64,000 nucleotides of DNA from Thermoproteota archaeon (GCA_030550585.1 JAUQPB010000001.1:384001-448000), one strand, 5' to 3'. Positions 6,101-48,345 are shown, numbered from the stretch's first letter. Made by a program: numbers and translations. The notes: a model not told the origin generated them from the sequence alone.

Positions 6101-7059
6101 TATATCAGCCCAACATCTTTCAATATGAACAATATAAAGGCTTGGATAACAAGCATTATTATACCTCTTTCCCAAAGCCGCTGGGGCATAAAAACTTCTC
6201 TGACCCTGACAGCCATGCCTTGTAATATTACAAGCAGTAGTAATACGATAATCATCTTGACAATAAAGTATATTGGATATAGCCAGGGAAAATCATAGGT
6301 CATGGGGCCTTGTCCACCCCCCAGAAACACTGTTGTTATTAAAGCAACGCCATACACCATTTCCAGATCCTTGCCCAGCTGTATGAAGGCTAATCTTCTA
6401 CAACAGTATTCGGTCATCCAGCCAGCAGCTATCTCCTGCTTCGCATGAGGTAGATCAAATGGTGGTTTCTCTAGCTTTGCAAGAAGAGCTATTAGCGCTA
6501 CAACAAAGCCTAGGGGCTGCACTAATAGTATTGGGTACCGAGACTGCACTTTAACTATATCGGACATTGATAGTGTGTTGCATTGCATAAAAGGTAGAGC
6601 TAGTGTTATTAACAGAAGCGATTCATACATTGCATACTGTACAACGAGCCTTCCTGTACCGACAACTGTAAATGATGATTGGATAGATAATCCCATTAGA
6701 GTTTGCGCTACTGCCGACAACGCAAAGGTTAGCGGTACTACAATGAAATCCTCATTGAAGCTGTAAAGAGATGTCGAAACAAATAAGGGTATAAAGAGTA
6801 GACCAAGTACAGAGCTCAGCACATAGAGAATAATAGAAAAGTCGGCTAGATAAGTATTCATACCTTCAATCTCAACCTCCTCTTTTAGAAGTAATTTTGC
6901 AAAATCATAAAATGGTTGTAAAACACCTTTAAACCCTGTTAACAACGGGCCTACACGCCACTGGATTCTAGCGATAAGTTTTCTTTCAATCCATTCGAAA
7001 ATTAGAGCCAAGACTATGAACGCGATTAAAAAGATTAGCGTAAGAACTACTACAAACGT
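6100..7059 (-). CDS. NuoH/HycD-like membrane subunit (start proposed at ACG 7059)
   Basis: ERKLIARIQWRVGP, LQPFYDFAKLLLKE, PFDLPHAKQEIAAGWMTEY; first TM helix extends upstream of TTG 7011. Confidence 0.88.
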   Translation of the reverse strand, partial: TFVVVLTLIFLIAFIVLALIFEWIERKLIARIQWRVGPLLTGFKGVLQPFYDFAKLLLKEEVEIEGMNTYLADFSIILYVLSSVLGLLFIPLFVSTSLYSFNEDFIVVPLTFALSAVAQTLMGLSIQSSFTVVGTGRLVVQYAMYESLLLITLALPFMQCNTLSMSDIVKVQSRYPILLVQPLGFVVALIALLAKLEKPPFDLPHAKQEIAAGWMTEYCCRRLAFIQLGKDLEMVYGVALITTVFLGGGQGPMTYDFPWLYPIYFIVKMIIVLLLLVILQGMAVRVREVFMPQRLWERGIIMLVIQAFILFILKDVGLI

Positions 7060-7065
7060 TTTTAC

Positions 7066-8706
7066 TCACCTAATTCTTTTATTTTCCTTTCTCAACTTGT
7101 TAAAGTCGACGAAAAACACGCTATTATGATTTTTATCAACAACGAGAGCTCTGTCCATGCAGCTAAAACATGGGTCAATAGATGTTATGATTACTGGCAC
7201 ATCTGATAAGGTATAGCCCTTCAGCATATCAGCCGCTAGAAGAATATTTGCTAGTGTAGGTGTCCTTATCTTAACTCTGTGGGGATTTCTAGAGTTTGCC
7301 GCTTTAACATAATAGAATAGTTCTCCTCTTGGTGCCTCTGTCCTAGCCACAGCCTCTCCTTCTTTAACTACTCCAATGACAAGAGTTTTTGGAACTGGAT
7401 TCTCATTTCTAGGCATTTTCTCGATACACTGTCTTATTATATTAATAGACTCTAGCACTTCTTTGATTCTCACCATAGTCACATTAAACACGTCGCCACC
7501 CTTACCTGTAACCACATTAAAATCTATCTCATCGTAGGCCCCATAGGGCTCAACTTTTCTTATGTCATAGGGAATCCCAGTAGCTCTTATCATTGGTCCA
7601 ACAGCACCTAATCTAATTGCATGCTCAGCATTATACATTCCAATACCTTTGATTCTTTCTACTAGTGGTTCATACGACATTATCTCGTCTATGAGTTTCT
7701 TATAGTCTTTCTCAAATTCTGCTATAGTCTTTGCAACTGTATTCAGTTTTTCGTCTGTCACATCCCTTCTTACACCACCAAATGCTATAAATGATTTGTG
7801 AACCCTATTACCTGTTAAAAGGTCGAGCAAAGACATTATTTTTTCTCTTAATCTCCAAATCCACATGAACATGCTTTCGAATCCAGTCCAATAGCCTAAG
7901 AGACCTATCCACAACACATGGCTGTGAATCCTCTCGAGCTCTGCTATCATAGTCCTTAGATACTCAGCTTTTTTACTTGGCTTAACATTCAGAAGCTCTT
8001 CAACAGCTAATGTAAATGTCCATGAGTGTATAAAGCTGCAAATACCGCAAATCCTTTCAACTAGAAACAGATCCTGCAGAAAGGTCCTACCCTCAGCAAT
8101 TTTTTCTATACCTCTGTGCACATGGCCTATCTTCGGAATTACATCAACTATTGTCTCCCCTTCCAATACTAGAATAAATCTCTCCGGCTCTTTTAATGCT
8201 GGGTGATATGGACCAAAAGGTAAGAGGATAACCGACTCAGCACTATACCTAGACGAGCCGGTGACATAAATCTGTGGCTCTCCCAACATGCAACCTGCTA
8301 CAACCTTCTCCAAATCTTCTTGTTTCACATTCCTAAGCAACGGATGTACATCATTGGGGAAGCAGTCTGGTAGTAAAACCCTTTTCCCAGTGAATGGGTT
8401 TCCATCAAATGCCACACCAAAGAGTTCAGAAACCTCCTGTTCATATATGGAGGCTGCTGGAGCTACTGAGGCTATGGATGGTAGAGTCTTCTTGTCCTCT
8501 GGTATTCTAGTTGAAATATTTTTTAATGCGCCTCTGAAATCGCTGAAGGTGTATATAAGCTCTATGCTCTTCTCTTTTTCATCATGCACAGCAGTTACTG
8601 AGACTAGATGTGGATAACTCGACAGCGTCTTGCTGGCAACCTCTACAATACTATGGGGCTCTGTATATGCCTTATCCTCTATTCTGCTCCTCCCCACAAC
8701 CACCAC
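7066..8706 (-). CDS. Group 4 [NiFe]-hydrogenase large subunit, fused NuoC-NuoD type
   Basis: N-terminal NuoC domain (EQEVSELFGVAFDG); intact L1 ERICGICSFIH and L2 DPCFSCMDR Ni-binding motifs plus a C-terminal extension. Confidence 0.93.
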   Translation of the reverse strand: MVVVGRSRIEDKAYTEPHSIVEVASKTLSSYPHLVSVTAVHDEKEKSIELIYTFSDFRGALKNISTRIPEDKKTLPSIASVAPAASIYEQEVSELFGVAFDGNPFTGKRVLLPDCFPNDVHPLLRNVKQEDLEKVVAGCMLGEPQIYVTGSSRYSAESVILLPFGPYHPALKEPERFILVLEGETIVDVIPKIGHVHRGIEKIAEGRTFLQDLFLVERICGICSFIHSWTFTLAVEELLNVKPSKKAEYLRTMIAELERIHSHVLWIGLLGYWTGFESMFMWIWRLREKIMSLLDLLTGNRVHKSFIAFGGVRRDVTDEKLNTVAKTIAEFEKDYKKLIDEIMSYEPLVERIKGIGMYNAEHAIRLGAVGPMIRATGIPYDIRKVEPYGAYDEIDFNVVTGKGGDVFNVTMVRIKEVLESINIIRQCIEKMPRNENPVPKTLVIGVVKEGEAVARTEAPRGELFYYVKAANSRNPHRVKIRTPTLANILLAADMLKGYTLSDVPVIITSIDPCFSCMDRALVVDKNHNSVFFVDFNKLRKENKRIR

Positions 8707-9163
8707 CAGCTACCTTTATCTCCCCTTTGTATATAGCCTCCAAAGCCCTGAAAATCTCTTTTGGATTTGGAGGGCACCCAGGTACACAAATGGTGACTGG
8801 AATAACCTTTTCAACACCACCCAAAACTGTGTATCCACCAGAAAATATGCCCCCACTGCATGCACAAGTTCCAATAGCGACGACATACTTCGGCTCTGGC
8901 ATCTGATCATATATGAGTTTTAGGGATTTCGCTACCTGTAGTGTTACCGGACCTGTGACAACAAGAACATCTGCATGCTTGGGAGAGGCAACTAGCTTAG
9001 CTCCCAAACGCTCAACATCATATAACGGTGTTAACGCTGCAACAAACTCTATATCACATCCGTTACAGCCTCCACTATTAAAATGGAAAATCCATGGACT
9101 CTTCCTAACAAGCCTTCTGTCAAATGACTCATGCTCACTTCTTTGCCCATCTGCCATAGTCAC
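8672..9163 (-). CDS. Hydrogenase small subunit (NuoB-like)
   Basis: GCNGCDIE, GTCACSGG, PGCPP. Confidence 0.93.
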   Translation of the reverse strand: MTMADGQRSEHESFDRRLVRKSPWIFHFNSGGCNGCDIEFVAALTPLYDVERLGAKLVASPKHADVLVVTGPVTLQVAKSLKLIYDQMPEPKYVVAIGTCACSGGIFSGGYTVLGGVEKVIPVTICVPGCPPNPKEIFRALEAIYKGEIKVAGGGCGEEQNRG

Positions 9164-18867: not shown

Positions 18868-19443
18868 TCACGATATAAATATATCTGAGTTGCCAGAGAC
18901 CCCCAGCAGAATCAATTTGTCGCAACTGATACTAGTGTTCCAATAGCTAAATAGGTAGTTCATTATGGAAAAACAACATATCTTGGTAAGAACATCAGCA
19001 CTTGTAGCATCTGTGACAAAACATCCTAATGTATCAATTTGTTGCAACACCTCCTCTCTTATACTCGCTATAGTAGCTGTATTCTCTAAGGTTTTAACGC
19101 CAGCATTTACATGTATCAGCGTTACGTAATGAGCTTGACTTTTGCATGCGCTCTCATTAATTTCATTTAATAGCTTTACAACGGTTTTTATTTGCCTGTT
19201 CCCTACAAGTCTAACAAGAGTCTCTATATCCTGTCTTTTCGCAACATTCTCTCCTCGCTTAAATGCCTTCATAGCTTTTGCAAATGCTATTACAGTGCTT
19301 TCTATTGGAAAACAACAATTTTTAATTGAGATACATGTAAAGTTTTTCTCATCAAAGTACCTCTTCAATATCTCACACAAACCTTCACATGGATTCTCAT
19401 GTTGTATTACTAGGTACAATTTATTGTAGCACCTACCCTCCAT
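18868..19443 (-). CDS. cgi121: KEOPS complex subunit Cgi121
   Basis: AMKAFKRGENVAKRQDIETLVRLVGNRQI matches the Cgi121 core; next to the Urm1-like gene and S17e. Confidence 0.75.
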   Translation of the reverse strand: MEGRCYNKLYLVIQHENPCEGLCEILKRYFDEKNFTCISIKNCCFPIESTVIAFAKAMKAFKRGENVAKRQDIETLVRLVGNRQIKTVVKLLNEINESACKSQAHYVTLIHVNAGVKTLENTATIASIREEVLQQIDTLGCFVTDATSADVLTKICCFSIMNYLFSYWNTSISCDKLILLGVSGNSDIFIS

Positions 19444-19717
19444 GGGTTATAGGAATGAAAACAATTTCATCAGTGTCCTCAACTTCGATGTCTTTATATG
19501 GATTGCTAAAAACCCTAATATCAACACCGTTGATTAAAATTAGAAACTCTCCTTCATTGATACGTCCTTCACGATTCAAAAGTTTACCTAGGTTAGGATA
19601 AGTATTTAATACTAGTTGAAAGAATTTGCCTAACTCCATCTTCTCATTGAGTCTGAATTCTATTGTTGAAACTCCCACCACATTCTTTATGTGGCCAACA
19701 AAAACTAGTTTTACTAT
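19433..19717 (-). CDS. Ubiquitin-like Urm1/SAMP (MoaD/ThiS family) protein (start proposed at ATA 19717)
   Basis: ILINGVDI..., C-terminal IPITHGG; beta1 strand VKLVFVGHIK lies upstream of GTG 19681. Confidence 0.88.
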   Translation of the reverse strand: MVKLVFVGHIKNVVGVSTIEFRLNEKMELGKFFQLVLNTYPNLGKLLNREGRINEGEFLILINGVDIRVFSNPYKDIEVEDTDEIVFIPITHGG

Positions 19718-19748
19718 CTTGACTTCACCCTAAAACGTTTGCAAAGTT

Positions 19749-24192: not shown

Positions 24193-24627
24193 TTGAGTTA
24201 CGGTAGTAGAAGCATTATCGGAGAGCTCTCTAAGGCCATAGATAAAAAGATAATAGTCAGACTTGTTGATGGAAAGACCTATATGGGCAAACTTATTTCA
24301 TTCGACCAGAGCTCTCTTCACATTGTATTAGGCAATGCTGAAAGTAGCGATGGTGGAAAATATTATAGAGTTATAGTCAATGGATCGAGAATTTCAGAGA
24401 TTATTATTCAAGAGCAGCCCATGTTTAGCGCTGAAGAGTTTGCCTCAATAATTATCTCGCGCCTTGGGTTACGACCAGATGTTGTAAAGGTTTTATCGGA
24501 TACAAATTCTATTATAATTTATGATAGAATAAAGGTTAGCGAGACAGGTGTTGAGGGTTCTGGCAGTCTAGCACAAAAAATCTATGAAATCTATAACGAA
24601 TATATAGAGAGTAAAAAGAAGGGTTGA
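24193..24627 (+). CDS. Sm-like protein SmAP3 (Lsm plus C-terminal domain)
   Basis: Sm1/Sm2 motifs (YMGKLISFD, VIVNGSRI) plus Lsm_C extension. Confidence 0.88.
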   Translation: MSYGSRSIIGELSKAIDKKIIVRLVDGKTYMGKLISFDQSSLHIVLGNAESSDGGKYYRVIVNGSRISEIIIQEQPMFSAEEFASIIISRLGLRPDVVKVLSDTNSIIIYDRIKVSETGVEGSGSLAQKIYEIYNEYIESKKKG

Positions 24628-24633
24628 ACAAAA

Positions 24634-26209
24634 TTGTTTTGAGATTAGAGATCAAGATCTTGCTGGAAGAATAGGAAGATTGAAGACCAGATCCGGAGTT
24701 ATTGAGACTCCCTATCTCTTTCCGGTAGTTGATCCCTCTCTTCAGGAACAATATGTTAAACCATCTGAGCTAATGGAAATAGGATTTCGTGGCATAATTA
24801 CAAATGCTTATCTGCTGAAAAAAGTTTCTCCTTCACCGATAGACGTTCACAAGCACTTGAATTTCAATGGCGTTGTAATGACTGATTCAGGAGCCTATCA
24901 AATTCTCAAATATGGTGGTATTGAGGTTAGCAACAGAGAGATTATTGAGTATCAATGTGCTATTAAAAGCGATATAGGAGTGATTCTCGATATACCAACC
25001 GGATTTGATGCAAGCAGAGATGAAGCTTTTAGTAGCGCAGACGAGACTTTGAAGAGAGCTCAAGAAGCTGTTAACATTATTTCTGACCCCCTATGCAGAG
25101 AAACTTTATGGACATTACCAGTTCAAGGTGGTATACACCTAGACATACTTCGTGATTATGCTAAAAAGTCTGTAGATATTTTCTACGATGGATTCAGCAT
25201 ATTTGCTTTAGGTAGTCCAACAACACTATTGGAACAGTACATGTTTGATAAAGTAGCAGAAATGATATACACTGTTAGGTCTGAGATACCATTTGCCGCT
25301 CCACTTCATTTGTTTGGTGCCGGACACCCATTAATAATACCCTTTGCCGTTGCCCTTGGTGTAGATCTATTCGATTCTGCAAGTTACATACTCTACGCTA
25401 AAGATGATAGGTATATCACACGCAGAGGAACATATAAACTGAAAAACCTAGACTATAGTACCTGTCAATGCCCAGTATGTTCAAAATATTCACCAAAAGA
25501 GCTATTGGAACTTCCAAAAAAGGAAAGAGTAAGACTTCTGTCTCTACATAATTTATATGTAATTAGGGAAGAAATTAATGAAGTAAAGCAAGCCATTAAA
25601 GAGAATAGACTGTGGGAATACCTCGAATACAAGGCAAACAGCCATCCAGCAGCTAAGAGAATTTTTATGACAATGCTAAAATATTTAGAATATCTCTATA
25701 AGCATTCCCCCCAGTCAAAACCCAACACCCGTGCTGTATTCATCTTATCTGAATACTCCATCTATAACCCAAAGATATTGAGTTCAAGGAGACGATCTAT
25801 TCAGATAAGAAACAGAGGCGGGGAAAATACCTTGGCTTTTCTGCCATATTCTCTTGCAGAAAACAATAGAATAGAAAAGCTTGTAGCCCACTTTTCAAAG
25901 GAATTAAACATTAATCTCCAAACTCTAAAGCTATATCTATACTATCCAATTATAGGGGTTATTCCTGCGGAGCTACATTCTGTATATCCATATTCGCATT
26001 TTGAGTTAGGATTCAGTCCAACAGATAACGCTATTTCTGATCTTGCATATCTAATCTTTGAGATCTTTTTGAAATCAGATAATGTAAATGGGGTATGGAT
26101 AGTCACATGTAAAGAGGATTGGCAAGAAAAATTATATGGGAAGATAGCTAAAATTGCTGAAAATTCTGATATAGGGAGTAAAGTTAAGAAAATTGAATTT
26201 GCCTGCTAA
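24634..26209 (+). CDS. tgtA: Archaeosine tRNA-guanine(15) transglycosylase (5' +1 frameshift after codon 2)
   Basis: MTDSGAYQ, HLFGAGHP, GVDLFDSASY, CQCPVC; conserved FEIRDQDLAGRIG N-terminus is reached only via TTG TTT T GAG. Confidence 0.9.
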
Positions 26210-28689: not shown

Positions 28690-28788
28690 TAACTATTTCG
28701 CCTCTACAGCATCTGCTAAACTATTAATTAAGCTGATCTAAAGCTAAAAACATTTTTCCCAATAGTTTATATAGAAGGTGAGTCTAGA

Positions 28789-29331
28789 CTGAAAGATCAG
28801 AAGATAGTTTATTGCGAGCTATGTGGAAATCCGATAATTGATGGAAAGGCTCACAAAGTTTTGATAGACAATGCAATTCTTACTGTATGCGATAATTGCT
28901 TTAATAAGCTAAGTAAGAAAAAAGCGGATCAAACATCAGTTAAAGAATCTAGTACACCTGCTTCTCAAATTAGAGGTGTAGCACAACCAAAAAGTTCACA
29001 AGACTCTAAAGCTTTGAAAGAGTCTAAGAAGAGAACTACAATTGCATACGAACGCTACGAACTTGTTGAAGACTATGCCGAGAGAATTAGAAGAGCCCGC
29101 GAATCATTAGGATGGAGCCAAAGCGTTCTAGCTGTCAAGGCAAAGGTTGGTGAGAATATCATTAAAAGGATAGAAAGTGGAAAACTTAGGCCATCATTCG
29201 ACTTAGCAAAAAGACTTGAGGAAATTTTAAACATAAGACTCCTTGTGCCGGTTGTTGAAGAGGAAATCAAGGAAAGCAAAAGTGTATCGAAGGAGGTTAC
29301 ACTAGGGGAAATTGTAAATATAAGAGAATGA
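28789..29331 (+). CDS. mbf1: Archaeal MBF1 (Zn ribbon + HTH) (start proposed at CTG 28789)
   Basis: CELCG...VCDNC Zn ribbon, IRRARESLGWSQ HTH, C-terminal TLGEIV. Confidence 0.9.
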   Translation: MKDQKIVYCELCGNPIIDGKAHKVLIDNAILTVCDNCFNKLSKKKADQTSVKESSTPASQIRGVAQPKSSQDSKALKESKKRTTIAYERYELVEDYAERIRRARESLGWSQSVLAVKAKVGENIIKRIESGKLRPSFDLAKRLEEILNIRLLVPVVEEEIKESKSVSKEVTLGEIVNIRE

Positions 29332-38023: not shown

Positions 38024-38278
38024 GAGGCAACAACCGCCAAACTAGGCATCACAACTCTAAGGCTATCAGAAACCTATAAAAATTTAACTAAAATACTGAC
38101 CCCATTATCAGAAACTATATAGCTGTTGCTAATATAGTTTGTACAAGATCTAGAACAGTTTCATGCAATAATACAATTAACTTCACAATGTATCTTTGAT
38201 TATATTCCTGCAAAGCCCTTCATTATAACCATAGCTTAAAATCTGTGAAAGCTTGTGTGTAGCGTAGGCTGAATTTTC

Positions 38279-38824
38279 ATGATTTCGGAAAACAGTAGTA
38301 GCATAATTAGATCTTTTTTGATAGGCTCTGAGAAGTGCCCTGTCTGCGGTTCTATAGCATTAACCTATTTACATTTATACCAAGCTCCTCACAATGAAAC
38401 AGTAGCTATCGTGACAATAAAGTGTGATAAATGTGGATTCAAATACTCAACTGTTTTGTCTATAGCAACGTCTTTTTCTGATAATAAATGCATTGAAATT
38501 GAGGTGTCGGATCCCCAAGATCTAAGAACGCTCATATACCTATCTGACAACACCACAATAGAGATTCCTGATATTGGTATAAAAGTCGATTTATCCCAAT
38601 TACGATTGGGGAGCATAGTAACAGTAGACGCAATATTATCATATCTTGTAGAGTGGATAGAAAACGCGCAACATATTGAAAATAACGATGAGTTCGCTAA
38701 AACGTTGCTGCTGCTAAAATCCTTGCTTGATGAAAACATCGACAGAAAAATAAAAATTGTTATAAGAAGCGACAACGGTGTCGGCATAATAAACAGCTAT
38801 CGAAAAAACTACAGTAGATGCTAA
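38279..38824 (+). CDS. ZPR1-like zinc finger protein
   Basis: CPVCG...CDKCGFK plus ZPR1 A/B-like domain. Confidence 0.8.
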   Translation: MISENSSSIIRSFLIGSEKCPVCGSIALTYLHLYQAPHNETVAIVTIKCDKCGFKYSTVLSIATSFSDNKCIEIEVSDPQDLRTLIYLSDNTTIEIPDIGIKVDLSQLRLGSIVTVDAILSYLVEWIENAQHIENNDEFAKTLLLLKSLLDENIDRKIKIVIRSDNGVGIINSYRKNYSRC

Positions 38825-38830
38825 ATCTCT

Positions 38831-39382
38831 TCACTGTTTTACAACTTTGATTAGCTTGCCTTTCCTACCTTCTTTTTTCTTCTTTAATCGTATCTCCAAA
38901 ACACCGTTCTTGTATACAGCCTCTGCAGAATCCACATCCACCTCTACTGGCAATTCTATCTCCTTCTTATATTTTCTCTCGTGGTCAGAGCCTTCAACAA
39001 CTATATGGCGTTCATCTAATGCCTCAACCTTAATCTTATTTTCGTCAACGCCAGGCATCTCTAAAACTACTCTGATTTTGTCATCTTCTTCATATATATC
39101 AACCAGTGGCTCCATCTCTTCACTAACAATAACTCTTGGCCTACCCCTTCCACTTCTTTTGACATTGCCAAACTCATATATTTTGGGGATTCCATCAGGT
39201 CCGATCTCAATTCTGAAACCATATATTATTGGCTTGCCTAACTCCTCTCCCTCTATAGGTATGGAACCAATTCTGAATGTCCTTTCCAACTCCTCTAACT
39301 CCTCTTCCAGTTCGCTAAAAAGCTCGTCAAATATGTCAAAGAATTTTCTTCTTTTCCTTCTAGGCTCATCAGATCCCGACAC
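38831..39382 (-). CDS. hsp20: Small heat shock protein Hsp20
   Basis: YGFRIEIGPDG, EPLVDI, EMPGV, YKNGVLEI. Confidence 0.93.
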   Translation of the reverse strand: MSGSDEPRRKRRKFFDIFDELFSELEEELEELERTFRIGSIPIEGEELGKPIIYGFRIEIGPDGIPKIYEFGNVKRSGRGRPRVIVSEEMEPLVDIYEEDDKIRVVLEMPGVDENKIKVEALDERHIVVEGSDHERKYKKEIELPVEVDVDSAEAVYKNGVLEIRLKKKKEGRKGKLIKVVKQ

Positions 39383-39446
39383 AGCAAACACCTTGTTACA
39401 TGCCTATGCCTAGCTAGACTTATAAGTGTATGCTTAAATCAACCCT

Positions 39447-39719
39447 CTATTCGCTGGACCATGATCCTACTAAGATATAACACTCTCTTTCCAAACATTT
39501 TTGTTGCTTAATTATATCCGTAATATCTGGATCCAATGATGCAAATCTATCTGTATTCTCTGGCTTCAGTTCAATAATGCTTAGTTTTGGTAGTAGAAAT
39601 TTGCTTAGACTGTTCATAACCTTTTTAGCCTCATCTATACTAGTGTAAACTCCTAAAATAACCTTCATACTCTCCTTGGCCACAATACCTAAAGGACTCT
39701 TCCTGTATATGAACCACAT
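39447..39719 (-). CDS. Hypothetical protein
   Basis: ORF only. Confidence 0.5.
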   Translation of the reverse strand: MWFIYRKSPLGIVAKESMKVILGVYTSIDEAKKVMNSLSKFLLPKLSIIELKPENTDRFASLDPDITDIIKQQKCLERECYILVGSWSSE

Positions 39720-39924
39720 AATCTAACAGCCAGATAACCAAATTTTAAATATTTTTATGTTACACGTAGTTGTAGCTTTAATAATTTTACTGGAGTTGCA
39801 AAAGCTTCGGTGCTTTGTGCTAAGCATACTCTAAAGCACATATGCATTGCTTTGTTTGATTTGTGTCACAGCTTTTCTATAGCCCTCATATTACAGTACT
39901 TGTATTAAGAACAGTGTAACGGCT

Positions 39925-40275
39925 ATGAATGGCACAGTTTTAGAGGTTACAATATTAATGGGTCTTGATGATGTTAGCAACCAAGCATTGGATAATCTCA
40001 AAAAAGCTAGTGAAATTCTTTACCATAGATATAAAATAAAATTGATTCTAAATCCCATTAATCTGTGGCTAGATCCACTAAAAGCCTCTATAAATTCCCT
40101 CCCCATAATATTCATTGGGAGCAAAAAGATATTTTCAGGCTATCCTCCATCCATTAATGAAATCATACGAGAAGCAGTCAAGCTTGCTACATCTAATCAC
40201 CACACAAACTTTGAAGCATTATTACCAACGGCCATACTTAGAGAAGATTTTATTGATGCGGCTCTAATAGAATAA
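39925..40275 (+). CDS. Thioredoxin-like fold hypothetical protein
   Basis: SLPIIFIGSKKIFSGYPP cis-Pro loop; no CxxC. Confidence 0.5.
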   Translation: MNGTVLEVTILMGLDDVSNQALDNLKKASEILYHRYKIKLILNPINLWLDPLKASINSLPIIFIGSKKIFSGYPPSINEIIREAVKLATSNHHTNFEALLPTAILREDFIDAALIE

Positions 40276-40470
40276 GAACTTCTAAAGCCTTTGTATTGGA
40301 TTATCCGCTAGGCTTATTATAAATAAGAGAAGAAATTAGACTAAGCTAGCATAAGAAAATATATCACTTCTGTGCAAATAAATCTCATTTATCAAATGAT
40401 AAAGGAAATGTAACCAGAATCTGATAATAAATCCTATTGTAAAAGTTCGATCGTCATAGGTTGTAGTTTA

Positions 40471-41493
40471 ATGATAGAAACTGATGTTGTGATAATAGGC
40501 TCTGGTATTGCAGCATTAAAGGCGTACAAAGATTTTTATGATCTTGGATATAGTGCTATAATTATTGATCCAGGTCCCCTTGGAGGAAGTGTCTCTTCTG
40601 TTGGCACTTCATATAAATTTCCAAAAATTCCTATACTAATAGATTATGGACTTAGGAATATGTTTGAGGGGTGTGAATTTTCTTGCTATCCTATAGAATT
40701 AAATACGATAAAGATGGGTGATATAGTTAGTAAGATGCTTGGTTTCGAGAGATTTGAGCCACAGCGTCTGTGGTTTTATGATCTATTCAATATGAAGAAG
40801 GCTTGTTTTACAAGAAATATAGTCGACTGTGTAATTAGAAACTTGGGAATATCTTATTATCTAATTAAAAGAATTGTAAGTGGTATAAGAAGGATATACC
40901 TTGACACAAAGATAATCACTCTATCAATTGGTCTTGCTATAAAATATAAAAAAGTTGTATATACATGGCCTTTGGACATATTAAGAGACTTCATTTTAAC
41001 TAGGAAAAATGAGTTGTATTTAGCGTTAGATGATGTTGCAAAGGCTTTGAAGTATGCATCCCTATTTATTCGTGCATATGTTACTAGAGAAGGTATAGAA
41101 GGATATGGATGTAAAGAAAAGAAGATGAACATATATCTACATTCAACAAAAGCTTCACGGTTTCATACAGCCATTAAAATACCATTACATGAAGATGTAC
41201 ATGTACTTTATGCTGTTACAAGTTATTCGCAAAGCTATCCTCTATTACCAGGAATAGGAGAGAAAATAGATTCTGAGCTTAAAAAACACGGGCTTCTACG
41301 AGATTTCACCAGAGCTCTAGAGATTCAAAATATTGACATGCGCTATGGCATTCTAAACAAAATTGATAGAAAAAGCATAGAAACTCTAAAGGAGCTACTT
41401 TCGCCATTTGATATTAAATTGTTTGGAAGACTTGCTGAGTGGACAGACTACGATATACCTACAATAATTTTTAAACAAACTGCCTTATCGTAA
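40471..41493 (+). CDS. FAD/NAD(P)-binding oxidoreductase
   Basis: VVIIGSGIAAL, LGG, C-terminal GRLAEW. Confidence 0.75.
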   Translation: MIETDVVIIGSGIAALKAYKDFYDLGYSAIIIDPGPLGGSVSSVGTSYKFPKIPILIDYGLRNMFEGCEFSCYPIELNTIKMGDIVSKMLGFERFEPQRLWFYDLFNMKKACFTRNIVDCVIRNLGISYYLIKRIVSGIRRIYLDTKIITLSIGLAIKYKKVVYTWPLDILRDFILTRKNELYLALDDVAKALKYASLFIRAYVTREGIEGYGCKEKKMNIYLHSTKASRFHTAIKIPLHEDVHVLYAVTSYSQSYPLLPGIGEKIDSELKKHGLLRDFTRALEIQNIDMRYGILNKIDRKSIETLKELLSPFDIKLFGRLAEWTDYDIPTIIFKQTALS

Positions 41494-41513
41494 TAGTGAA
41501 GGTGGTGCATGAA

Positions 41514-41663
41514 TTGAAGATAGATGCTATTAGAAAATGTAATGATCTGTGTGAAGAGATTGTTAACTGTGATGAATGTGAAGATGACTTCTGTGAGGAT
41601 CTGTGTGAAGAAGTTGAAAGGTACTGTGTTACTACATGCGTTGAACAGCTTGGGAATCAATAA
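41514..41663 (+). CDS. 49-aa acidic 8-Cys microprotein
   Basis: MKIDAIRKCNDLCEEIVNCDECEDDFCEDLCEEVERYCVTTCVEQLGNQ; GAAGGTGGTG SD upstream. Confidence 0.65.
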   Translation: MKIDAIRKCNDLCEEIVNCDECEDDFCEDLCEEVERYCVTTCVEQLGNQ

Positions 41664-42291
41664 CAATTTTATCGTTTAATTCAATATAATCAATTTTTTC
41701 GGCAATCAGCTGCGCAAGCTGAATAACCTCTTTCAGCATGTTGATCTCTGCAAATAGCTCATCTTCATATTCTTCAGCACGTTTAAGAACCTTCACAAGC
41801 TTTGGTAATACATTAAATGAAAACTGTTGAAACAATCTTATATCAGTTTTCGTTAGCCTCTCTTTGATGCTCATAGTCTTTAATTTGTTTAGCCAATATC
41901 TAGGCCTTAAGCTTTGCAACTGTATTCTTACTAAGGCTATATCTGGGTCATCTAATTCTTCAGATCCTTTGGAGATGCTATTTATTATAGACTCTATTAT
42001 CTCAACGTTGTATTTGAATTTGTACCAGTGCTGGTTCGATGTTTTATACGATGTTTCAATAATTTTATAGTCTCTCTCTAAAGTCTTTAAAAGAAGCGAT
42101 GGATTATAAGAAAATCCCATACTGTTGAGCCTCTCTACAACGCCTCTATAATCGAAATCCCCAAGCATGTTGTTACCATGTAACTTATTTTCTCTTGCAG
42201 CAGCTATCGCAGCTTTCACAACAAACAAGAATCTTTGACCATATCGATGATACGCATCTAGAATGGCAATTCTTAGAGCATCCATACTCAT
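41632..42291 (-). CDS. Conserved crenarchaeal hypothetical protein (wHTH-like)
   Basis: LGDFDYRGVV, YNPSLLLKTLERDY, TSYKTSNQHWY. Confidence 0.7.
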   Translation of the reverse strand: MSMDALRIAILDAYHRYGQRFLFVVKAAIAAARENKLHGNNMLGDFDYRGVVERLNSMGFSYNPSLLLKTLERDYKIIETSYKTSNQHWYKFKYNVEIIESIINSISKGSEELDDPDIALVRIQLQSLRPRYWLNKLKTMSIKERLTKTDIRLFQQFSFNVLPKLVKVLKRAEEYEDELFAEINMLKEVIQLAQLIAEKIDYIELNDKIVIDSQAVQRM

Positions 42292-42527
42292 TTTGTAACC
42301 TCGTTATTAATTTTTCTGTTGCAAACAAAAAAGTGTAGACTATATAAATCCTCACACGTTTACACAAATGCCGATGTAGTTGCTTTGATCATAAGTTTGT
42401 ATTACTTTATCTTCTTTAACATTTCTACGTCCTCAAATTACATTGTTACTTAGCTATACCATATGAAGTGATATTAGGACTAAAGAACATGTGTCGAAAG
42501 GGGGTTATATTGTGTTCGCACAAGGTA

Positions 42528-42587
42528 ATGTCAGTTGGGTAAGTTCATATCATTGTGTTCATCAATACGGGGATAACTCATCATCTA
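42528..42587 (-). ncRNA. C/D box sRNA with rRNA-complementary guides
   Basis: ATGATGA, GTTATCCCCGTA guide, TTGA (D'), ATGATA (C'), AACTTACCCAA guide, CTGA. Confidence 0.75.
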
Positions 42588-42643
42588 AATTCCATCAACA
42601 ATTAAAAAGGTCTTTAAATTTTTAGTTTAAGTGGTATCATTAA

Positions 42644-42901
42644 ATGGTTTTAGTAAAGATTGTTGTACAAGCTTACAAGATATTTGATAGAGTAACGATC
42701 ATTGATGTAGCTAATCAGTTATTGAAACTTGATGGTGTTAAGAGCGTTGATATAAAGGTTAATGATGTGGACGCCGAATCTATTCACTTAACAATATCTA
42801 TAGAGGGAATTGACTTAGATTTTGAGAAGATAAGAAGTACATTGGATAGTCTTAATACTGTGATAAGCAGTGTTGATGAGATTATAGCGACTAAGGATTG
42901 A
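42644..42901 (+). CDS. DUF211 family protein
   Basis: LDGVKSVDIKV, IEGIDLDFEKI, SVDEI. Confidence 0.75.
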   Translation: MVLVKIVVQAYKIFDRVTIIDVANQLLKLDGVKSVDIKVNDVDAESIHLTISIEGIDLDFEKIRSTLDSLNTVISSVDEIIATKD

Positions 42902-43014
42902 AAATTTAAGTCAATTACTTGGTTTATTTATAATATTATTGTTTCTAGTCTACATGTCCATAACCACATATTAAGCTTTTTACACCGATAACAATCGGCA
43001 GCAGGTGAAGCACA

Positions 43015-43977
43015 TTAGTAAATGTTCTTTGCTCTAGATGCAAAAAGAACAATGCTATATTTTATCAAGTACATACTGGGTTAAGATTATGCAAAAACTG
43101 TTTTATTGAAGATGTTAAGCAAAGAGTTCTAGAACAGATGAACAGATATCAAATGATATTACCTGGAGATAATGTATTGATAGGGGTTTCAGGAGGGAAA
43201 GACAGCTATGTATTATTAAGAATACTAGCTGAAGTCCATAGTACTTCAAAGATTGTTGGTTTAATGATTGAAGAGGGTATCCATGAATATAACAGAGCAG
43301 ATGTGTTTGCTTTCTTGAAAAAGGTGTGCAATGAAATTGGTGTTGACTGTTTAATTACCAGCATCAAGAAAGAGCTTGGCTATAGTGTAGATGATTTCAT
43401 TTCTCTACAAATAGAGAAGTATGGTACACTCAAAATAAGTGCTTGTACATATTGTGGTATTGCAAGGAGAAGAATTTTAAATGCTTACGCCAGAATGCTA
43501 GGTGCAGATAAAGTTGCTACAGGGCATAACCTAGACGATGAGGTTCAAACCTATTTGATAAACATATTGAGAGGCGATATAATGAGACTTGTACAACTAC
43601 ACCCCCTAAGCATGACCCACAGCAAGTTACTTGTGAAAAGGGTTAAGCCACTTAGAACGATATATGAGTATGAAACATCGTTTTTAGCCTACATAGAAAA
43701 TTTCAGATTTCAAGAAACGGAATGCCCATACATTTTAGAGAGACCTACACTAAGATCAAGGATTCGGGAAATGATTAAAGAATTAGAAAGAAGTTATCCT
43801 GACATCCAAATTAGGTTTTTGAGATATATAGACAACATTTTAGAGCCTTTCGTTAAATCAAGCAATGAGAATTTTGTGAATCTACCCCTATGCTCCCAAT
43901 GTGGAGAGCCTACTGCACCAGGCAGAAGCATTTGCAAATTCTGTGAGTTGGTAAACAGCATTGTATTAAATAAGTAG
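43015..43977 (+). CDS. ttuA: tRNA 2-thiolation protein TtuA/Ncs6 (start proposed at TTA 43015)
   Basis: N-terminal CSRC...CKNC Zn finger upstream of ATG 43138; SGGKDS, CTYCG, TGHNLDD, ECPY, C-terminal Zn finger. Confidence 0.9.
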   Translation, partial: LVNVLCSRCKKNNAIFYQVHTGLRLCKNCFIEDVKQRVLEQMNRYQMILPGDNVLIGVSGGKDSYVLLRILAEVHSTSKIVGLMIEEGIHEYNRADVFAFLKKVCNEIGVDCLITSIKKELGYSVDDFISLQIEKYGTLKISACTYCGIARRRILNAYARMLGADKVATGHNLDDEVQTYLINILRGDIMRLVQLHPLSMTHSKLLVKRVKPLRTIYEYETSFLAYIENFRFQETECPYILERPTLRSRIREMIKELERSYPDIQIRFLRYIDNILEPFVKSSNENFVNLPLCSQCGEPTAPGRSICKFCELVNSIVLNK

Positions 43978-44099
43978 TGAATTGCACAATACGGATATCG
44001 CACCTTCTGTCAAAAGCTATTTGAAGACTGTATTAAGAGATATAACATTATGAATTAAAGCATTTAAAGTGTTATTTTATAAAACTGTTATAGTAGTGG

Positions 44100-45098
44100 T
44101 TGCACATTATGAGGATTAAAATAGAGGAAGAAATGCCGAAAGCAACCTTCGCCATAAATAATTTGATTGAGGACTACTCATTTCAGGGGCGTGAAACCCA
44201 AGTTGTTTCCAAGATCGCATTTCCCCAATACAAACCATTAAAGGGGTATCTAATTATAGCAGTTTCAAGTAACGATAGAATTAATGACATTATAAAATGG
44301 AAAGTATCATTAAATAACATTGCACTCACACGAGAATTTAGACCACATATAGATGTAAAAATAGATGAAAAAACCTATCAAGCAGTATTTGCATATGAAA
44401 TCTCAAAAATACTATCATCAACGGATTTGACATTGAAGATAAGCTATGAGGGTAAAGACAAAATAAAAATAGATACCGCGTCACTTCTAACGTTTCATCA
44501 GTACGACGACGACAATGTCTACGTCTCATGTATAAGTGAAGTTGTTCAATTAAATGACTATGAAATGATATTACCAACAGTTAACAATAAAGACTATAAA
44601 GAATCAACTATTTACATGGGTGTCACAGCTCAAAAGCCATCGACTCTCCTCATAAATGCTAACAATAGTAATGACAGTAATACATTTATATTAAGAGAAG
44701 GTTTCAACTTAATTGAAGCTAGTCTAAGTAGATATAGAACAGCTGATAGGATCACGCTAAAATGTGATGATCAATCAGCAAGACATTTGTTTAGATGTGT
44801 AACATATTCATCCATAAGTTATCCCAATTTAGAGCTAGAACATCGCAGAATTGATAACAGCAATATAGATTTGGTAATAAAAAACATAGGTGTTGCAAAA
44901 GCTGATCATATTGAATTAATTATATTGAGAAGCGGATTACCAATACAAAAATTTGTTGTAGGACCTATGGAAGCAAATGAAGAGAGAAATGTAAGGTTGT
45001 CATTACCGATGTTCAACGACATCAACAAGAAAATGACTATAAGAGTTATATGGAGAAAAGCATTAAGAACGTTTGTAAAAGACTATCAAATTACCTAG
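44100..45098 (+). CDS. Hypothetical protein with C-terminal CARDB/Ig-like domain
   Basis: LVIKNIGVAKA...GPMEANEERNV. Confidence 0.6.
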   Translation: MHIMRIKIEEEMPKATFAINNLIEDYSFQGRETQVVSKIAFPQYKPLKGYLIIAVSSNDRINDIIKWKVSLNNIALTREFRPHIDVKIDEKTYQAVFAYEISKILSSTDLTLKISYEGKDKIKIDTASLLTFHQYDDDNVYVSCISEVVQLNDYEMILPTVNNKDYKESTIYMGVTAQKPSTLLINANNSNDSNTFILREGFNLIEASLSRYRTADRITLKCDDQSARHLFRCVTYSSISYPNLELEHRRIDNSNIDLVIKNIGVAKADHIELIILRSGLPIQKFVVGPMEANEERNVRLSLPMFNDINKKMTIRVIWRKALRTFVKDYQIT

Positions 45099-45146
45099 TT
45101 GTACCTTTGTTCATTAGCTACATTATTCTTTTCCGACTTGTTTGCA

Positions 45147-45458
45147 TCATTGCTGAGTAGCTGTAGCTATAAATATTCTTGCTGGTTTTGCCTTTTTTGC
45201 ATTGACGAGCTCCTTTACCTGTTCTAAAAACCTCTTTAGATTTTCAACATTCTCCTTGTAAACGCTTTTTCTTCTCGGATCTATAGGTATATTGAGTTGT
45301 TTAGCTATTTTGCAATTTACTCCAGCTTCTTTTAGTTCTCCTAGGCTATATCCTTTCCCAATTTTGAATCCAACTTCAATTCCTCTGTATTTCACCAACG
45401 ATACTCTTTTAACCTTTGGTGGCGGAATCTCAATCGTGATACAACATTCTGTTGCCAT
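45147..45458 (-). CDS. rpl13e: 50S ribosomal protein L13e
   Basis: GKGYSLGELKEAG, IPIDPRRKS. Confidence 0.92.
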   Translation of the reverse strand: MATECCITIEIPPPKVKRVSLVKYRGIEVGFKIGKGYSLGELKEAGVNCKIAKQLNIPIDPRRKSVYKENVENLKRFLEQVKELVNAKKAKPARIFIATATQQ

Positions 45459-45505
45459 GTTATATAGACCCCTTTCTAAAACACCATCATTATATTACGT
45501 GGGAT

Positions 45506-45994
45506 TTATAAGCTATTCTCAGACACAGATTTTGAATTCATGAATTTGTCCAATCCTATTGAGAGCTTTCTTGAGAGATAGGTAAAAAGATCTTCAGCGC
45601 TTTCTATAACCTCCTTCCCAATTCTAATATTTTTATTCGATATAGTTTCACTTGCTATAATCTTGTTCAGTTCTATGACCCTCCATGTCTTTAATGAGTC
45701 TATCCTTATTGCAAGCAAAGGTTCTCCACCAGCTCTTCTCGCAAATTCAATAATTTTAAGAACCTGCTTAGACTCTACGTAGATAGTTTTCAATTCCTTT
45801 CTTCTTTTGACCTCAAAAACAAATATCTTAGAATCTTTTAACGCAACTAGATCTGGATATACCCCCCTCTTTATTTTAGCTCCACTAGCAGGTCCTCTGA
45901 TAACAGCAAAGCCCATTTTCCACAATTTCCTGACCAGCTCACGCTCTGCACTAGCCCCACTACTTTTAATTCTTTTCGTATTTGCATCAGACAT
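45506..45994 (-). CDS. hjc: Holliday junction resolvase Hjc
   Basis: ERELV, GFAVIRGPASG, PDLVA, FEVK. Confidence 0.93.
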   Translation of the reverse strand: MSDANTKRIKSSGASAERELVRKLWKMGFAVIRGPASGAKIKRGVYPDLVALKDSKIFVFEVKRRKELKTIYVESKQVLKIIEFARRAGGEPLLAIRIDSLKTWRVIELNKIIASETISNKNIRIGKEVIESAEDLFTYLSRKLSIGLDKFMNSKSVSENSL

Positions 45995-46016
45995 GGCACT
46001 AACTCTGCGCCCTTGT

Positions 46017-47570
46017 TTACGAAATCTTCAAGTCTATTTCAAAGCCCATTTTATCTAATTTCTTCCTTATTTTTCTCAGTATTTTTAAGGTGTTGGAGTT
46101 GTAGAATGCTCTGGGGATAGACACCGTAACTGTTTTACCACTTACATCGACGTTGGCATAGGGCATGAGCCTTCTCACAACATTTAATGCTCTTTCAGCT
46201 ATCATTTCACCATGTATTTTCCTGACAGGAACCACAACTGTTTGTTCTCCAAAAACGTATATCTCGTATTCAAGCTCATTTGTCAGGAAATCTCTAACCT
46301 CAACGACAGGTCTAGCCAGATCTGCTTCCCTTAAGCCTGTTGGCAACCTCACTGTAAGCGATAGTTCGTACACCTTTGAAACTCGTCCTCTATCTATGAA
46401 TATTACAGTGTCTATTATACTTGGTATCATACCTATGTCAACACGTCTAATAAACCTCTGTATAGCGTCTATTGGCGATGTTGCATGAACAACTCCTATC
46501 ATACCTATTCCCGCCAATCTTAGATCTGTATATATAGCGAAGTCCTCATCATCTCTCATCTCATCAAAGACCGTATAGTCTGGTCTGCTTAGCAAGAGTA
46601 TATCGTGGAGATCTCTTGAAGAAGCATAGTGCTTTGAATATTGTGCTACAGTTGGTGGCAACCTCATATCTCTTGGAGACTCAATTGTTTTCACAATTTT
46701 TCCCATCCTAGCATAGTATTCTGCCAGAGCTTGCGCAAAGGTTGTTTTTCCCATACCAGGTGCTCCTGCAATCAGTATGCCCTCCGCCTTCTCATTTAGC
46801 CTCTTAACAAGTTTTTCAGGTAAATTATAGTCCTCTAGCCTCAGCTTTACAATAGGCCTAGTAATTGTTATTTCGTATGCCAATGATACAGGCGGTGCCA
46901 CAATCACTATCCTATAATCCTTTAACTGAATCAGCATAATTCCTTGTCGCTCGGTCTCAATGATCCCCTCCCCACTTCTAGCCCTCCTAACTATATCCTC
47001 AACAAGCATCTCAGCTTCAGCCTTAGTTACAGGAGCATCACTGACTGGAACAAGCCTCCAATCACCAGGTCTTCCTTTCTTAGCTGTAATAGGCGCTCCT
47101 TCTTTTATATGCAAACTCAGCGTTTCTTCATCTATATATTTTTCAAACCACAATCCCTCACCATCTTTATCCTCTATAATCAACACATCTATGCCCATTG
47201 CTTTGCAAACTAATTGCTGTAGAGAATCCTTAGTGATGACCTTGCCACCTAGCTTCTTCGCCAAATCTCTTACCACACCATTTACAATATCTACACCAAG
47301 TTCCTTTATCTCTCTAGACCCTCCCTCAACAATCTCTATGACTGTTCCTATCTCCTCCACATCATAATTCCTCACCTCAGCCAACTCCTGCAAACCAATA
47401 TACCCAATAGCACTACCGTTCCTGGCCATAGCTTCAAGATATGTTATAAGTTCTTTGGGTATAACAATCCTTCCTCTAACCAAACCTCTCCTCACTATTT
47501 TAGATAAACTCCTCGTGATAATAACTGATACATCAGGAATATACACATCCTCAAAAGCTATTTTGACCAT
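46017..47570 (-). CDS. PIN-domain ATPase PINA
   Basis: N-terminal PIN domain, GAPGMGKTTF, ESPRD, DEMR, HATSPIDAIQRF; adjacent to hjc. Confidence 0.9.
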   Translation of the reverse strand: MVKIAFEDVYIPDVSVIITRSLSKIVRRGLVRGRIVIPKELITYLEAMARNGSAIGYIGLQELAEVRNYDVEEIGTVIEIVEGGSREIKELGVDIVNGVVRDLAKKLGGKVITKDSLQQLVCKAMGIDVLIIEDKDGEGLWFEKYIDEETLSLHIKEGAPITAKKGRPGDWRLVPVSDAPVTKAEAEMLVEDIVRRARSGEGIIETERQGIMLIQLKDYRIVIVAPPVSLAYEITITRPIVKLRLEDYNLPEKLVKRLNEKAEGILIAGAPGMGKTTFAQALAEYYARMGKIVKTIESPRDMRLPPTVAQYSKHYASSRDLHDILLLSRPDYTVFDEMRDDEDFAIYTDLRLAGIGMIGVVHATSPIDAIQRFIRRVDIGMIPSIIDTVIFIDRGRVSKVYELSLTVRLPTGLREADLARPVVEVRDFLTNELEYEIYVFGEQTVVVPVRKIHGEMIAERALNVVRRLMPYANVDVSGKTVTVSIPRAFYNSNTLKILRKIRKKLDKMGFEIDLKIS

Positions 47571-47760
47571 GTTCCGTAGACCATATACAATTCCATGACA
47601 ATTACTCTATTATCATCTATACAAGAGTCTTAGAAAGGCTTAAAAATTGATAGTATAAATTCGAATGGTTCTAACACATAACGTAAAATCTTAAGATGAT
47701 ATTCCTCGTAATCCCGATAGCTCGACAATTTATTGTATCCAACAGACCAGCATTACTATT

Positions 47761-48330
47761 TTAAATGCTAAAACCTAGGTTTCTCAGCCTTTCATATATA
47801 TGCTCTGCCTCATCCTCAAAAACCTCAATCGCGCTCTTCATCTTGTTTTTATCAATTTTTATCTCATTCCTTTTCATAAGATCGACTACCAGCGATAGCT
47901 TAGCAAGATCTTGATCCGAGCCTCTTCTTGCCTTCAGCACAATCCAACACTCTTTTGCTAAACATGTAATTTTTTCACCACCTATCTCGTATTCCTGTCT
48001 ACATAGATCTATTAATTCCTGCGGTATGTAGAAATCCATAACATTTTCAAAAAGCTCAACAACCACCTCCTCATCATTTACAGTCATTGATACTGATGGT
48101 GTTCCAAGCACCGTAACACCTGTGCTCCAGCCTCTGTTCTGAGCTATGTCATATATCCTATCAGCTTCTAGCAATGGACTCATAGAGGTTACAAATAGGT
48201 CTATGTCTCCCTCAAATGATTTGTTTCCAAGCTCAATGTTTAAACATGTATCCCCAATTACGATTCCTTCTATGCCCTCCTTGGCTAGCTCCCTAATAGC
48301 CTTTGCAATATGCTTTAATGTATATTGCGT
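47761..48330 (-). CDS. Nucleotidyltransferase-family protein (start proposed at ACG 48330)
   Basis: Catalytic VIGD...GDIDLF motif lies upstream of ATG 48183, in the same open frame. Confidence 0.75.
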   Translation of the reverse strand, partial: TQYTLKHIAKAIRELAKEGIEGIVIGDTCLNIELGNKSFEGDIDLFVTSMSPLLEADRIYDIAQNRGWSTGVTVLGTPSVSMTVNDEEVVVELFENVMDFYIPQELIDLCRQEYEIGGEKITCLAKECWIVLKARRGSDQDLAKLSLVVDLMKRNEIKIDKNKMKSAIEVFEDEAEHIYERLRNLGFSI

Positions 48331-48345
48331 AAACCATCCCCAACA

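Follow-up and report, generated by a model that had tools for sequence, protein, structure and literature searches.

Near-cognate codons at Shine-Dalgarno spacing as probable weak start codons of conserved genes in a hot-spring archaeon and its relatives

Results

Start regions of five conserved genes in the window

We analyzed a 64-kb window (G000:C4:384001-448000) of an archaeal genome, G000, which was assembled from a hot-spring metagenome (1.76 Mb in 7 contigs, 41% G+C); public homologues of one protein encoded in the window carry the label Ignisphaera sp. Five genes in this window, a nuoH-like gene, the small modifier gene Urm1/SAMP, MBF1, TtuA and a DUF2204 nucleotidyltransferase (NTase), appear to start at a codon other than ATG, GTG or TTG, located shortly behind a Shine-Dalgarno (SD) motif (Table 1). 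In all five frames (5/5), these three canonical codons are absent between the in-frame upstream stop and the codon in question. Each window gene was searched in 30 related genomes, and the start regions were then read. Throughout, frames are delimited stop-to-stop, domain limits are Pfam profile coordinates, “genus” denotes G000-G016 and “family” denotes f1.

The five codons are found where the original prediction had placed them, 6-7 nt past GGTGA or GGGGA. Each had also been described as one transition away from a canonical start, which holds for all five but is not a rule, given that ATT is used elsewhere. With codons numbered from the upstream stop, a canonical one first occurs at codon 18 in nuoH, 17 in Urm1, 44 in both MBF1 and TtuA, and 55 in NTase. 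A start at such a codon is incompatible with the family-conserved N-terminus, clearly so for NTase, TtuA, MBF1 and Urm1, and less clearly for nuoH. The remainder of each open reading frame (ORF) is intact, as had been claimed, with full-length Pfam matches and no broken frame.

The sequence GGTGA is the core of GGAGGTGATCC, and we take it to be the core of the SD motif of this organism because the 3' end of its 16S rRNA is GGATCACCTCC. Canonical genes use the same spacing, in agreement with the prediction: after GGTGA, the canonical starts of G000 peak at a spacing of 6 nt (ATG 30, GTG 9, TTG 23), with 17/4/9 (ATG/GTG/TTG) at spacing 5 and 10/7/8 at spacing 7. The near-cognate codons are spaced 6-7 nt from the SD at the five sites and 5-7 nt in the orthologues. 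It should be noted that, with the SD at GGTGA and the start 6 nt on, the TGA is always in frame two codons upstream and mimics a stop codon (e.g., 7066-7068 and 43006-43008). The in-frame TGA ahead of nuoH, TtuA, aIF1A (see below) and others raised the possibility of stop-codon readthrough out of the preceding gene, which we rejected on account of this framing; only nuoH has a long same-frame upstream ORF.

Table 1. Coordinates and start regions of the genes discussed (window numbering unless a contig is named; codons as read)
Feature	Coordinates	Strand	Start codon	SD motif, spacer	Remarks
nuoH-like (PF00146 NADHdh)	6103..7059	minus	ACG 7059-7057	GGTGA 7066..7070, GTAAAA (6 nt)	profile 4-296/298 from residue 8
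NuoC/D-like ORF	7069-8706				upstream of nuoH; Pfam Complex1_30kDa, Complex1_49kDa, NiFeSe_Hases
Urm1/SAMP (ThiS-fold small modifier)	19436..19717	minus	ATA 19717-19715	GGTGA 19725..19729, AGTCAAG (7 nt)	ThiS profile 3-76/76 from residue 6
Ribosomal protein S17e	19752-19979				29 nt upstream of Urm1/SAMP
SmAP3/Lsm	24193-24624				stop TGA 24625-24627
tgtA (PF01702), open frame	24608..26206	plus			overlaps the SmAP3/Lsm stop
MBF1 (N-terminal CxxC zinc ribbon, HTH_3)	28789..29328	plus	CTG 28789-28791	AGGTGA 28776..28781, GTCTAGA (7 nt)	
TtuA (2-thiouridine synthetase)	43015..43974	plus	TTA 43015-43017	AGGTGA 43003..43008, AGCACA (6 nt)	TtuA_LIM_N profile 2-26/26 at residues 6-31
NTase (DUF2204)	47764..48330	minus	ACG 48330-48328	GGGGA, TGGTTT (6 nt)	SD 48336..48341, imperfect GGGGAT, one mismatch to GGTGAT; Pfam profile 2-180/181 from residue 5
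Ribosomal protein L40e	48349-48513				15 nt upstream of NTase
aIF1A (PF01176, E 1e-21)	G000:C3:58140-58457	minus	ATA	GGTGA, 6 nt	outside the window
Cytidylate kinase	G000		CTG		next canonical codon 67 codons on, past the P-loop
Phosphoribosyltransferase	G000		ATA		
CbiZ	G000		ACG		ATG in G007, ATA in G028
Unnamed 122-residue protein	G000		GTA		
527-residue protein	G000		CTG		
UPP synthase	G000		ACG		doubtful
TFS/RpoM-like zinc-ribbon protein	G000:C7:23813-24115		ACG		genome-scan candidate, Pfam support
GHMP kinase	G000		ACG		genome-scan candidate, Pfam support
PdxT	G000		ATA		genome-scan candidate, Pfam support
P-type ATPase	G000		ATT		genome-scan candidate, Pfam support

Agreement of independent assemblies

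In a metagenome-assembled genome of seven contigs, a wrong base or an indel could have altered the start codons, and consensus error had been named as a possible refutation of the prediction. We therefore compared the window with sequencing run X3, which comes from a study other than that of the likely source sample (word depth about 240). The X3 contigs cover positions 28700-34714, 36200-43155 and 43126-48400 and differ from the window by 1, 5 and 17 letters, respectively, none of which falls within the MBF1 CTG, the TtuA TTA or the NTase ACG. Run X5 also agrees with the window at the MBF1 CTG. This comparison spans 19.7 kb, and the sites at 7059 and 19717 are judged on conservation only. Errors are excluded for the three compared sites and unlikely for the other two, because the codons recur in species genomes that were assembled separately, up to 19 of them (see below); as an explanation of the whole set, error has next to no probability left. 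Two other observations were made along the way. At position 47759, a few bases past the NTase stop codon, one base is missing in X3; over the compared 19.7 kb, the two sequences differ by no other indel. At positions 35047-35140, each of the four metagenome runs shows a word depth of thousands and numerous loose ends; this segment behaves as a tRNA gene common to many organisms would.

Conservation of the start codons in related genomes

Across orthologues, the check that had been proposed, genomes independent of G000 share the near-cognate codons at the homologous start, and more distant relatives of MBF1, Urm1, TtuA and NTase carry ATG, GTG or TTG in the same column. When start columns of distant orthologues were mapped without gaps, the result was too noisy, and manual reading together with an SD-spacing enrichment test (see below) was used instead. 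The counts for NTase and MBF1 were likewise taken from manual reading of the start regions because the MAFFT table was misplaced by one codon in part of the rows for these two genes.

The NTase start is ACG in 13 of the 16 species of the genus, 6-7 nt past (A)GGTG. In 12 of these 13, there is no in-frame canonical codon from the upstream stop to the ACG, and in G008, G014, G009, G012 and G001 the stop is only 1-2 codons ahead of it. Within the genus, ATG occupies the start column only in G003, G006 and G016. In a tree of three concatenated proteins, these three species form a clade that is sister to (G008,(G000,G007)), which makes ACG the ancestral state of the genus, replaced once. The ACG is restricted to family f1: none of the 18 orthologues read from other families has it. 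All of these have a canonical start, exactly in the homologous column in 13 and otherwise no more than a few codons from it.

MBF1 starts with CTG, 5-7 nt past GGTG(A/G), in 9 of the 16 species, and in G010 and G011 this CTG directly follows an in-frame TAA. The start column of the other species holds TTG (5 species), GTG (1) or ATA (1). In the window, the first canonical codon of MBF1 is a TTG at 28861, past the first CxxC of the zinc ribbon. Of 17 family genomes, 15 have ATA in the start column of Urm1/SAMP, directly behind a stop in G008, G004 and G005, and 6 of the 15 have no in-frame canonical codon upstream. The TtuA start column contains TTA in G000 and G007 and ATA in G008, the three closest species, in all of which AGGTGA is followed by a 6-nt spacer and no canonical codon is found within 5 codons on either side; GTG, TTG or ATG is used in more distant species. 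The LIM_N domain of TtuA lies upstream of the first ATG (43138).

The nuoH-like gene is the weakest of the five sites. Its first canonical codon, TTG, is located 16 codons past the ACG, and the TGA within its GGTGA doubles as the in-frame stop of the upstream NuoC/D-like gene. The only close orthologue, in G007, retains ACG and has a GTG three codons downstream.

These alignments bear directly on the possibility that translation begins at the next downstream ATG, GTG or TTG, leaving the conserved stretch before it untranslated or as a relic. Gene callers have made this choice: among the database versions of NTase from this genus (P0001, P0005, P0006, P0009 and P0010), none uses ACG, and the starts were put in three different wrong places, i.e., an ATT taken for Met, which drops 7 residues, internal ATGs, which drop about 16 to 33 (P0005, P0009 and P0010 begin at an internal Met), and a GTG within the SD. 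A canonical codon also lies a few codons on in nuoH and in MBF1 of G007 and G015. However, a downstream start would cost approximately 45 of the 181 DUF2204 profile positions, the whole LIM/zinc-finger domain of TtuA, the first CxxC of MBF1 and the P-loop of cytidylate kinase (see below). Furthermore, compared to orthologues with ATG at the column, the protein sequence of the upstream stretches is conserved while their codons change synonymously. The position of the next canonical codon varies from +6 to +40 in aIF1A and reaches +155 in NTase. We therefore regard downstream initiation as highly unlikely.

Enrichment of near-cognate codons at SD spacing and further genes

Stop-to-stop ORFs of G000 were compared with 381-kb samples of G015 (same genus, median identity 58%), G028 (another family of the order, 42%) and G007 (91%). 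A gene was flagged when homology reached at least 5 codons upstream of its first canonical codon. This criterion flagged 22 of 352 genes in G000 (compared to G015) and 22 of 352 in G015, as well as 15 of 197 in G000 (compared to G028) and 18 of 197 in G028. In the flagged genes, where homology forces an upstream start, we asked which non-canonical codon is located 6-7 nt after an SD of at least 5 nt. A one-mismatch neighbour of ATG was found in 14 of 23 cases, compared to 15.5% expected from codon usage (binomial p 9.5e-7): CTG 5, ATA 3, ATT 3, ACG 2, AAG 1 and AGG 0. At control spacings, the corresponding fractions were 0/16 (2-3 nt), 1/8 (10-11 nt), 4/21 (12-13 nt) and 1/11 (14-15 nt), in total 6/56.

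A strict genome-wide scan of G000 carried more noise and pointed the same way: at spacing 5-7 (n = 177), ACG was found 5 times compared to 0.87 expected (p 0.0019), and CTG 6 times compared to 2.16 expected (p 0.022); at control spacings 11-19 (n = 504), there were 3 ACG and 6 CTG. One-mismatch codons in the functional window versus a twofold-larger control window numbered 57 versus 78 in G000, 13 versus 15 in the G007 sample, 10 versus 16 in the G015 sample and 18 versus 21 in the G028 sample, modest enrichments against a background of spurious ORFs and 5' leaders that are unsuited to comparison of lineages.

On reading, several of the 22 G000 genes flagged against G015 were set aside: a canonical start is present slightly further in for aIF5B, FBP aldolase/phosphatase and the gene at C4 index 529965 (SD-led for the first two), and part of Cbf5 and one gene fragment were ordinary. 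The Cbf5-like ORF (G000:C7:122989-123832) aligns to its G015 orthologue only from codon 16, without a nearby start, and looks like a downstream exon; a pre-mRNA intron in the Cbf5 gene is known from crenarchaea. Four of the five window genes remained in G000, together with the six further candidates listed in Table 1 from cytidylate kinase to UPP synthase. In G015, CTG was found for PurQ (ATG in G000), along with one ATT (index 168952), and five such codons (ATA, two ATT, ACG and CTG) were found among the 197 orthologue pairs of the outgroup family genome G028; thus, the phenomenon is not specific to the genus. We roughly estimate that about 2-3% of genes use near-cognate starts, from some 8 among 352 orthologue pairs in G000 and 5 among 197 in the outgroup; because the background of the scan is high and flat, their total number in the genome can be bounded only loosely.

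The genome scan added the candidates with Pfam support (Table 1). ACG begins the TFS/RpoM-like gene in 7 of 19 family genomes, which belong to two clades; in the others, exactly this column holds ATG or GTG. In G000, this ACG directly follows TGA-AAA. The stop codon of the gene forms ATAG with the ATA of the next, 300-codon ORF, an overlap of the ATGA type with ATA in its place, and this ATA is located 6 nt past a GGTGA within the conserved C-terminal EEYGGEE codons.

The codon spectrum also speaks to RNA editing, which could restore a canonical start through C-to-U (ACG to AUG, CUG to UUG) or A-to-I conversion (AUA to AUG, UUA to UUG). All five window codons are indeed one deamination-type transition from ATG or TTG. 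However, ATT, which deamination does not convert to AUG, GUG or UUG, is found at SD+6 in forced cases (G015 index 168952 and two G028 genes), and there are 8 ATT candidates in the G000 genome-scan list. Editing would, moreover, require site-specific machinery for dozens of unrelated genes, and editing of this kind is not known in archaeal mRNA. We consider this explanation very improbable.

Start region of tgtA

A frameshift had been suggested for tgtA; no defensible slippery site and no near-cognate start were found. The conserved N-terminus CFEIRDQDLAGRIG begins at position 24635. Neither a canonical nor a one-mismatch start ahead of the conserved CFEI(R/K) N-terminus was found in G000, G007 and G015. 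In G015, tgtA is in the same frame as the preceding SmAP3 stop, and a GTT is located 7 nt past GAGGTGG.

Initiation machinery and the start of aIF1A

The original prediction tentatively attributed the start codons to a lineage-specific loosening of initiation, for example through altered aIF1 or aIF2. The genes themselves give this no support: aIF1 is intact, has an ATG start and is near-identical across species, the three aIF2 subunits (alpha, beta and gamma) are likewise intact and begin with ATG, and the initiator tRNA is ordinary (A1, GGGG/CCCC anticodon stem, CAU anticodon; one such gene was found in a scan without intron search). Near-cognate starts are also present in the outgroup G028. 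Of the idea that SD geometry directs initiation, the part that stands is the probable start of translation at near-cognate codons behind SD motifs in intact conserved genes; the part that falls is its ascription to peculiar aIF1/aIF2 factors of this lineage.

A different factor gene, which emerged from the genome scan, has an unusual start. It encodes aIF1A and stands fourth in an operon headed by aIF2 beta. Its start codon is ATA in 19 of 19 genomes of family f1, 4-7 nt past a GGTGA core, including the clade with canonical starts in the other genes. There is no in-frame canonical codon upstream in 17 of the 19. The basic tail encoded behind this ATA (A/P-K-x-K-K) shows synonymous changes and is homologous to the tails located behind ATG, TTG or GTG in other families. 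In family f2, the start is CTG in 4 of 5 genomes, directly behind an in-frame TAA in G063, and in the large-genome family f13 it is TTG in 6 of 6. Thus, a near-cognate or weak aIF1A start arose more than once.

Two other modes of initiation can be considered in light of these data, namely, a non-standard initiator (e.g., an agmatidine-type C34 reading AUA), or termination followed by reinitiation with little codon checking. The upstream stop is abutted or overlapped at nuoH, cytidylate kinase, CbiZ, tgtA and the ATA after the TFS-like gene; tgtA has no near-cognate candidate at all, and UUA and GUA fit a single-mismatch rule poorly. However, MBF1 comes first behind a divergent intergenic region, TtuA is 113 nt away from the previous gene, the only initiator-type tRNA gene found in the scan is the ordinary one, and the spectrum of CTG, ATA, ATT and ACG, with one AAG and no AGG, is the one predicted from single mismatches with CAU. 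We consider reinitiation or a modified initiator possible for the stop-abutting cases and for UUA, GUA and tgtA, and improbable for the set as a whole.

Discussion

The geometry of the start regions, their conservation, the enrichment at SD spacing and the agreement of independent assemblies are, in our estimate with a probability of about 0.8, best explained by SD-anchored initiation at near-cognate codons that are used as weak starts. Under this model, GGTGA in the mRNA would pair with the 3' end of the 16S rRNA and bring the codon that follows 5-7 nt later into the P site, where the normal initiator Met-tRNA (CAU), brought by aIF2, would tolerate a single mismatch, at position 1 for CUG, position 2 for ACG and position 3 for AUA and AUU. 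The start codons would then be ACG, AUA, CUG and also AUU, with UUA and GUA more doubtful. This proposal fits a published model of archaeal SD-led initiation, in which the initiator tRNA tests P-site triplets after SD pairing and aIF1 guards fidelity (PMC6237735).

The near-cognate starts appear to be functional states rather than decay because ACG has been kept genus-wide one transition from ATG, and because ACG and ATG have been swapped repeatedly in the TFS-like gene. We infer that such starts would be weak and that selection would keep them as attenuators, which may hold low-abundance enzymes low on highly expressed transcripts. Near-cognate cistrons are indeed located behind highly expressed genes: NTase behind L40e, SAMP behind S17e, cytidylate kinase behind L34e and NuoH behind NuoC/D. 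Cytidylate kinase overlaps the end of its L34e-like neighbour (a name read from sequence alone), and CbiZ starts 2 nt behind its neighbour.

Several observations weigh against this interpretation. In the genome-wide scan, the background is high, and the strict totals of non-canonical codons are flat across spacings. For Urm1/SAMP, 9 of the 15 ATA genomes have an in-frame canonical codon upstream, usually a GTG within the SD, 3 codons up, and these 9 do not force ATA because that codon is available; the same is true of in-frame canonical codons upstream of the TFS-like gene in 5 of its 7 ACG genomes. UUA and GUA each form two mismatches with the CAU anticodon, and neither is enriched genome-wide (TTA 4 and GTA 3 of 177 at spacing 5-7, versus 9 and 10 of 504 at spacing 11-19); the assignment of the TtuA codon in G000 and G007 is insecure for these two reasons. 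For nuoH, a downstream start at GTG (G007) or TTG (G000) is possible. The attenuator idea draws on four to five gene neighbourhoods, and neither MBF1 nor TtuA directly follows another gene. Finally, aIF1 rejects AUU in vitro (PMC4705826; PMC8211752), and in Sulfolobus the factor reported to discriminate against AUU is aIF1, not aIF1A (PMC4705826; PMC6237735).

The original prediction envisaged Urm1, TtuA, MBF1 and tgtA as a translation-fidelity feedback set. The other candidates are functionally mixed (cytidylate kinase, phosphoribosyltransferase, CbiZ, GHMP kinase, PdxT, the TFS/RpoM-like protein and a P-type ATPase), and the set is unsupported. To judge from its sequence, the start codon of aIF1A is a better candidate for fidelity feedback: ATA on this gene could tie synthesis of the factor to the start-codon stringency of the cell, in the way that AUU does for bacterial infC. 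By analogy, one can imagine a circuit in which the poor aIF1A start (AUA, CUG or UUG, depending on the family) reports and corrects stringency, like AUU of infC in bacteria and the start context of eIF1 in eukaryotes, and tens of genes with SD-anchored ACG, AUA, CUG or AUU rise and fall together. Such a set would include the tRNA 2-thiolation pair SAMP and TtuA, MBF1, the TFS/RpoM-like factor, cytidylate kinase and the L40e-linked NTase. We put this circuit forward as a tentative and rather doubtful extension. A search of the literature for discrimination by aIF1A against poor start codons returned nothing.

According to reviews, archaeal start codons are AUG, GUG and UUG (PMC4705826; PMC8211752). 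We found no report of conserved ACG, AUA or CUG primary starts in archaea, or of a start-codon feature of aIF1A, in a search with thin coverage of subscription journals. Gene finders assume AUG, GUG and UUG, so that, if near-cognate primary starts are regular, about 2-3% of genes would be misannotated at the N-terminus. The archaeal aIF1/aIF1A/aIF2 machinery would then tolerate near-cognates of the eukaryotic kind once the SD fixes the position, and the conserved AUA or CUG start of aIF1A offers a directly testable case in which an archaeal initiation factor may regulate its own translation.

Comparison with known systems

In plant organelles, ACG start codons are edited to AUG. The likeness to the present case is that a genomic ACG starts intact conserved genes; the difference is that organelle editing requires C-to-U conversion, which would leave the ATT starts unexplained. 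In the bacterium Deinococcus deserti, non-canonical starts (ATC in dnaA, CTG in rpsL) were identified by N-terminal proteomics (PMC2830850). There, as here, several conserved core genes of a prokaryotic lineage have starts other than ATG, GTG or TTG that annotation missed. However, the Deinococcus system is bacterial, IF3-based and limited to few genes, whereas the starts described here are archaeal, include ACG and ATA, extend over up to 19 genomes and are known from sequence alone. An experimental hint of archaeal near-cognate initiation comes from harringtonine ribosome profiling in Haloferax volcanii, where near-cognates make up approximately 30% of the putative alternative initiation sites and were set aside by the authors as possible false positives (PMC7261190). 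Those sites are alternative and not primary starts, come from a mostly leaderless euryarchaeon and were reported without analysis of conservation.

Eukaryotic near-cognate initiation employs the same set of factors (e/aIF1, e/aIF1A, e/aIF2 and Met-tRNAi), and the codon spectrum given above (from CTG 5 to AGG 0) resembles the eukaryotic one. In contrast to eukaryotes, the codon is apparently picked by SD spacing, without scanning or Kozak context, and the near-cognate codons are the main and only starts of housekeeping genes, not of upstream ORFs or N-terminal extensions. Eukaryotic factor genes are described as sensing stringency through their own poor starts (PMC6237735; PMC3326321), and the eukaryotic system closest to the present one includes such stringency feedback by eIF1 and eIF5.

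The closest bacterial parallel is infC. Its AUU start mediates autoregulation of IF3. Like aIF1A, infC is an initiation factor gene with a conserved non-canonical start behind an SD. It differs in belonging to another domain of life; aIF1A is a homologue of IF1/eIF1A and not an analogue of IF3, its start is AUA or CUG and not AUU, and its autoregulation is suggested by analogy. The bacterial case is documented in a review (PMC4705826). If the stringency circuit outlined above were to exist, it would be the first feedback of this type in Archaea, linking the bacterial and eukaryotic versions.

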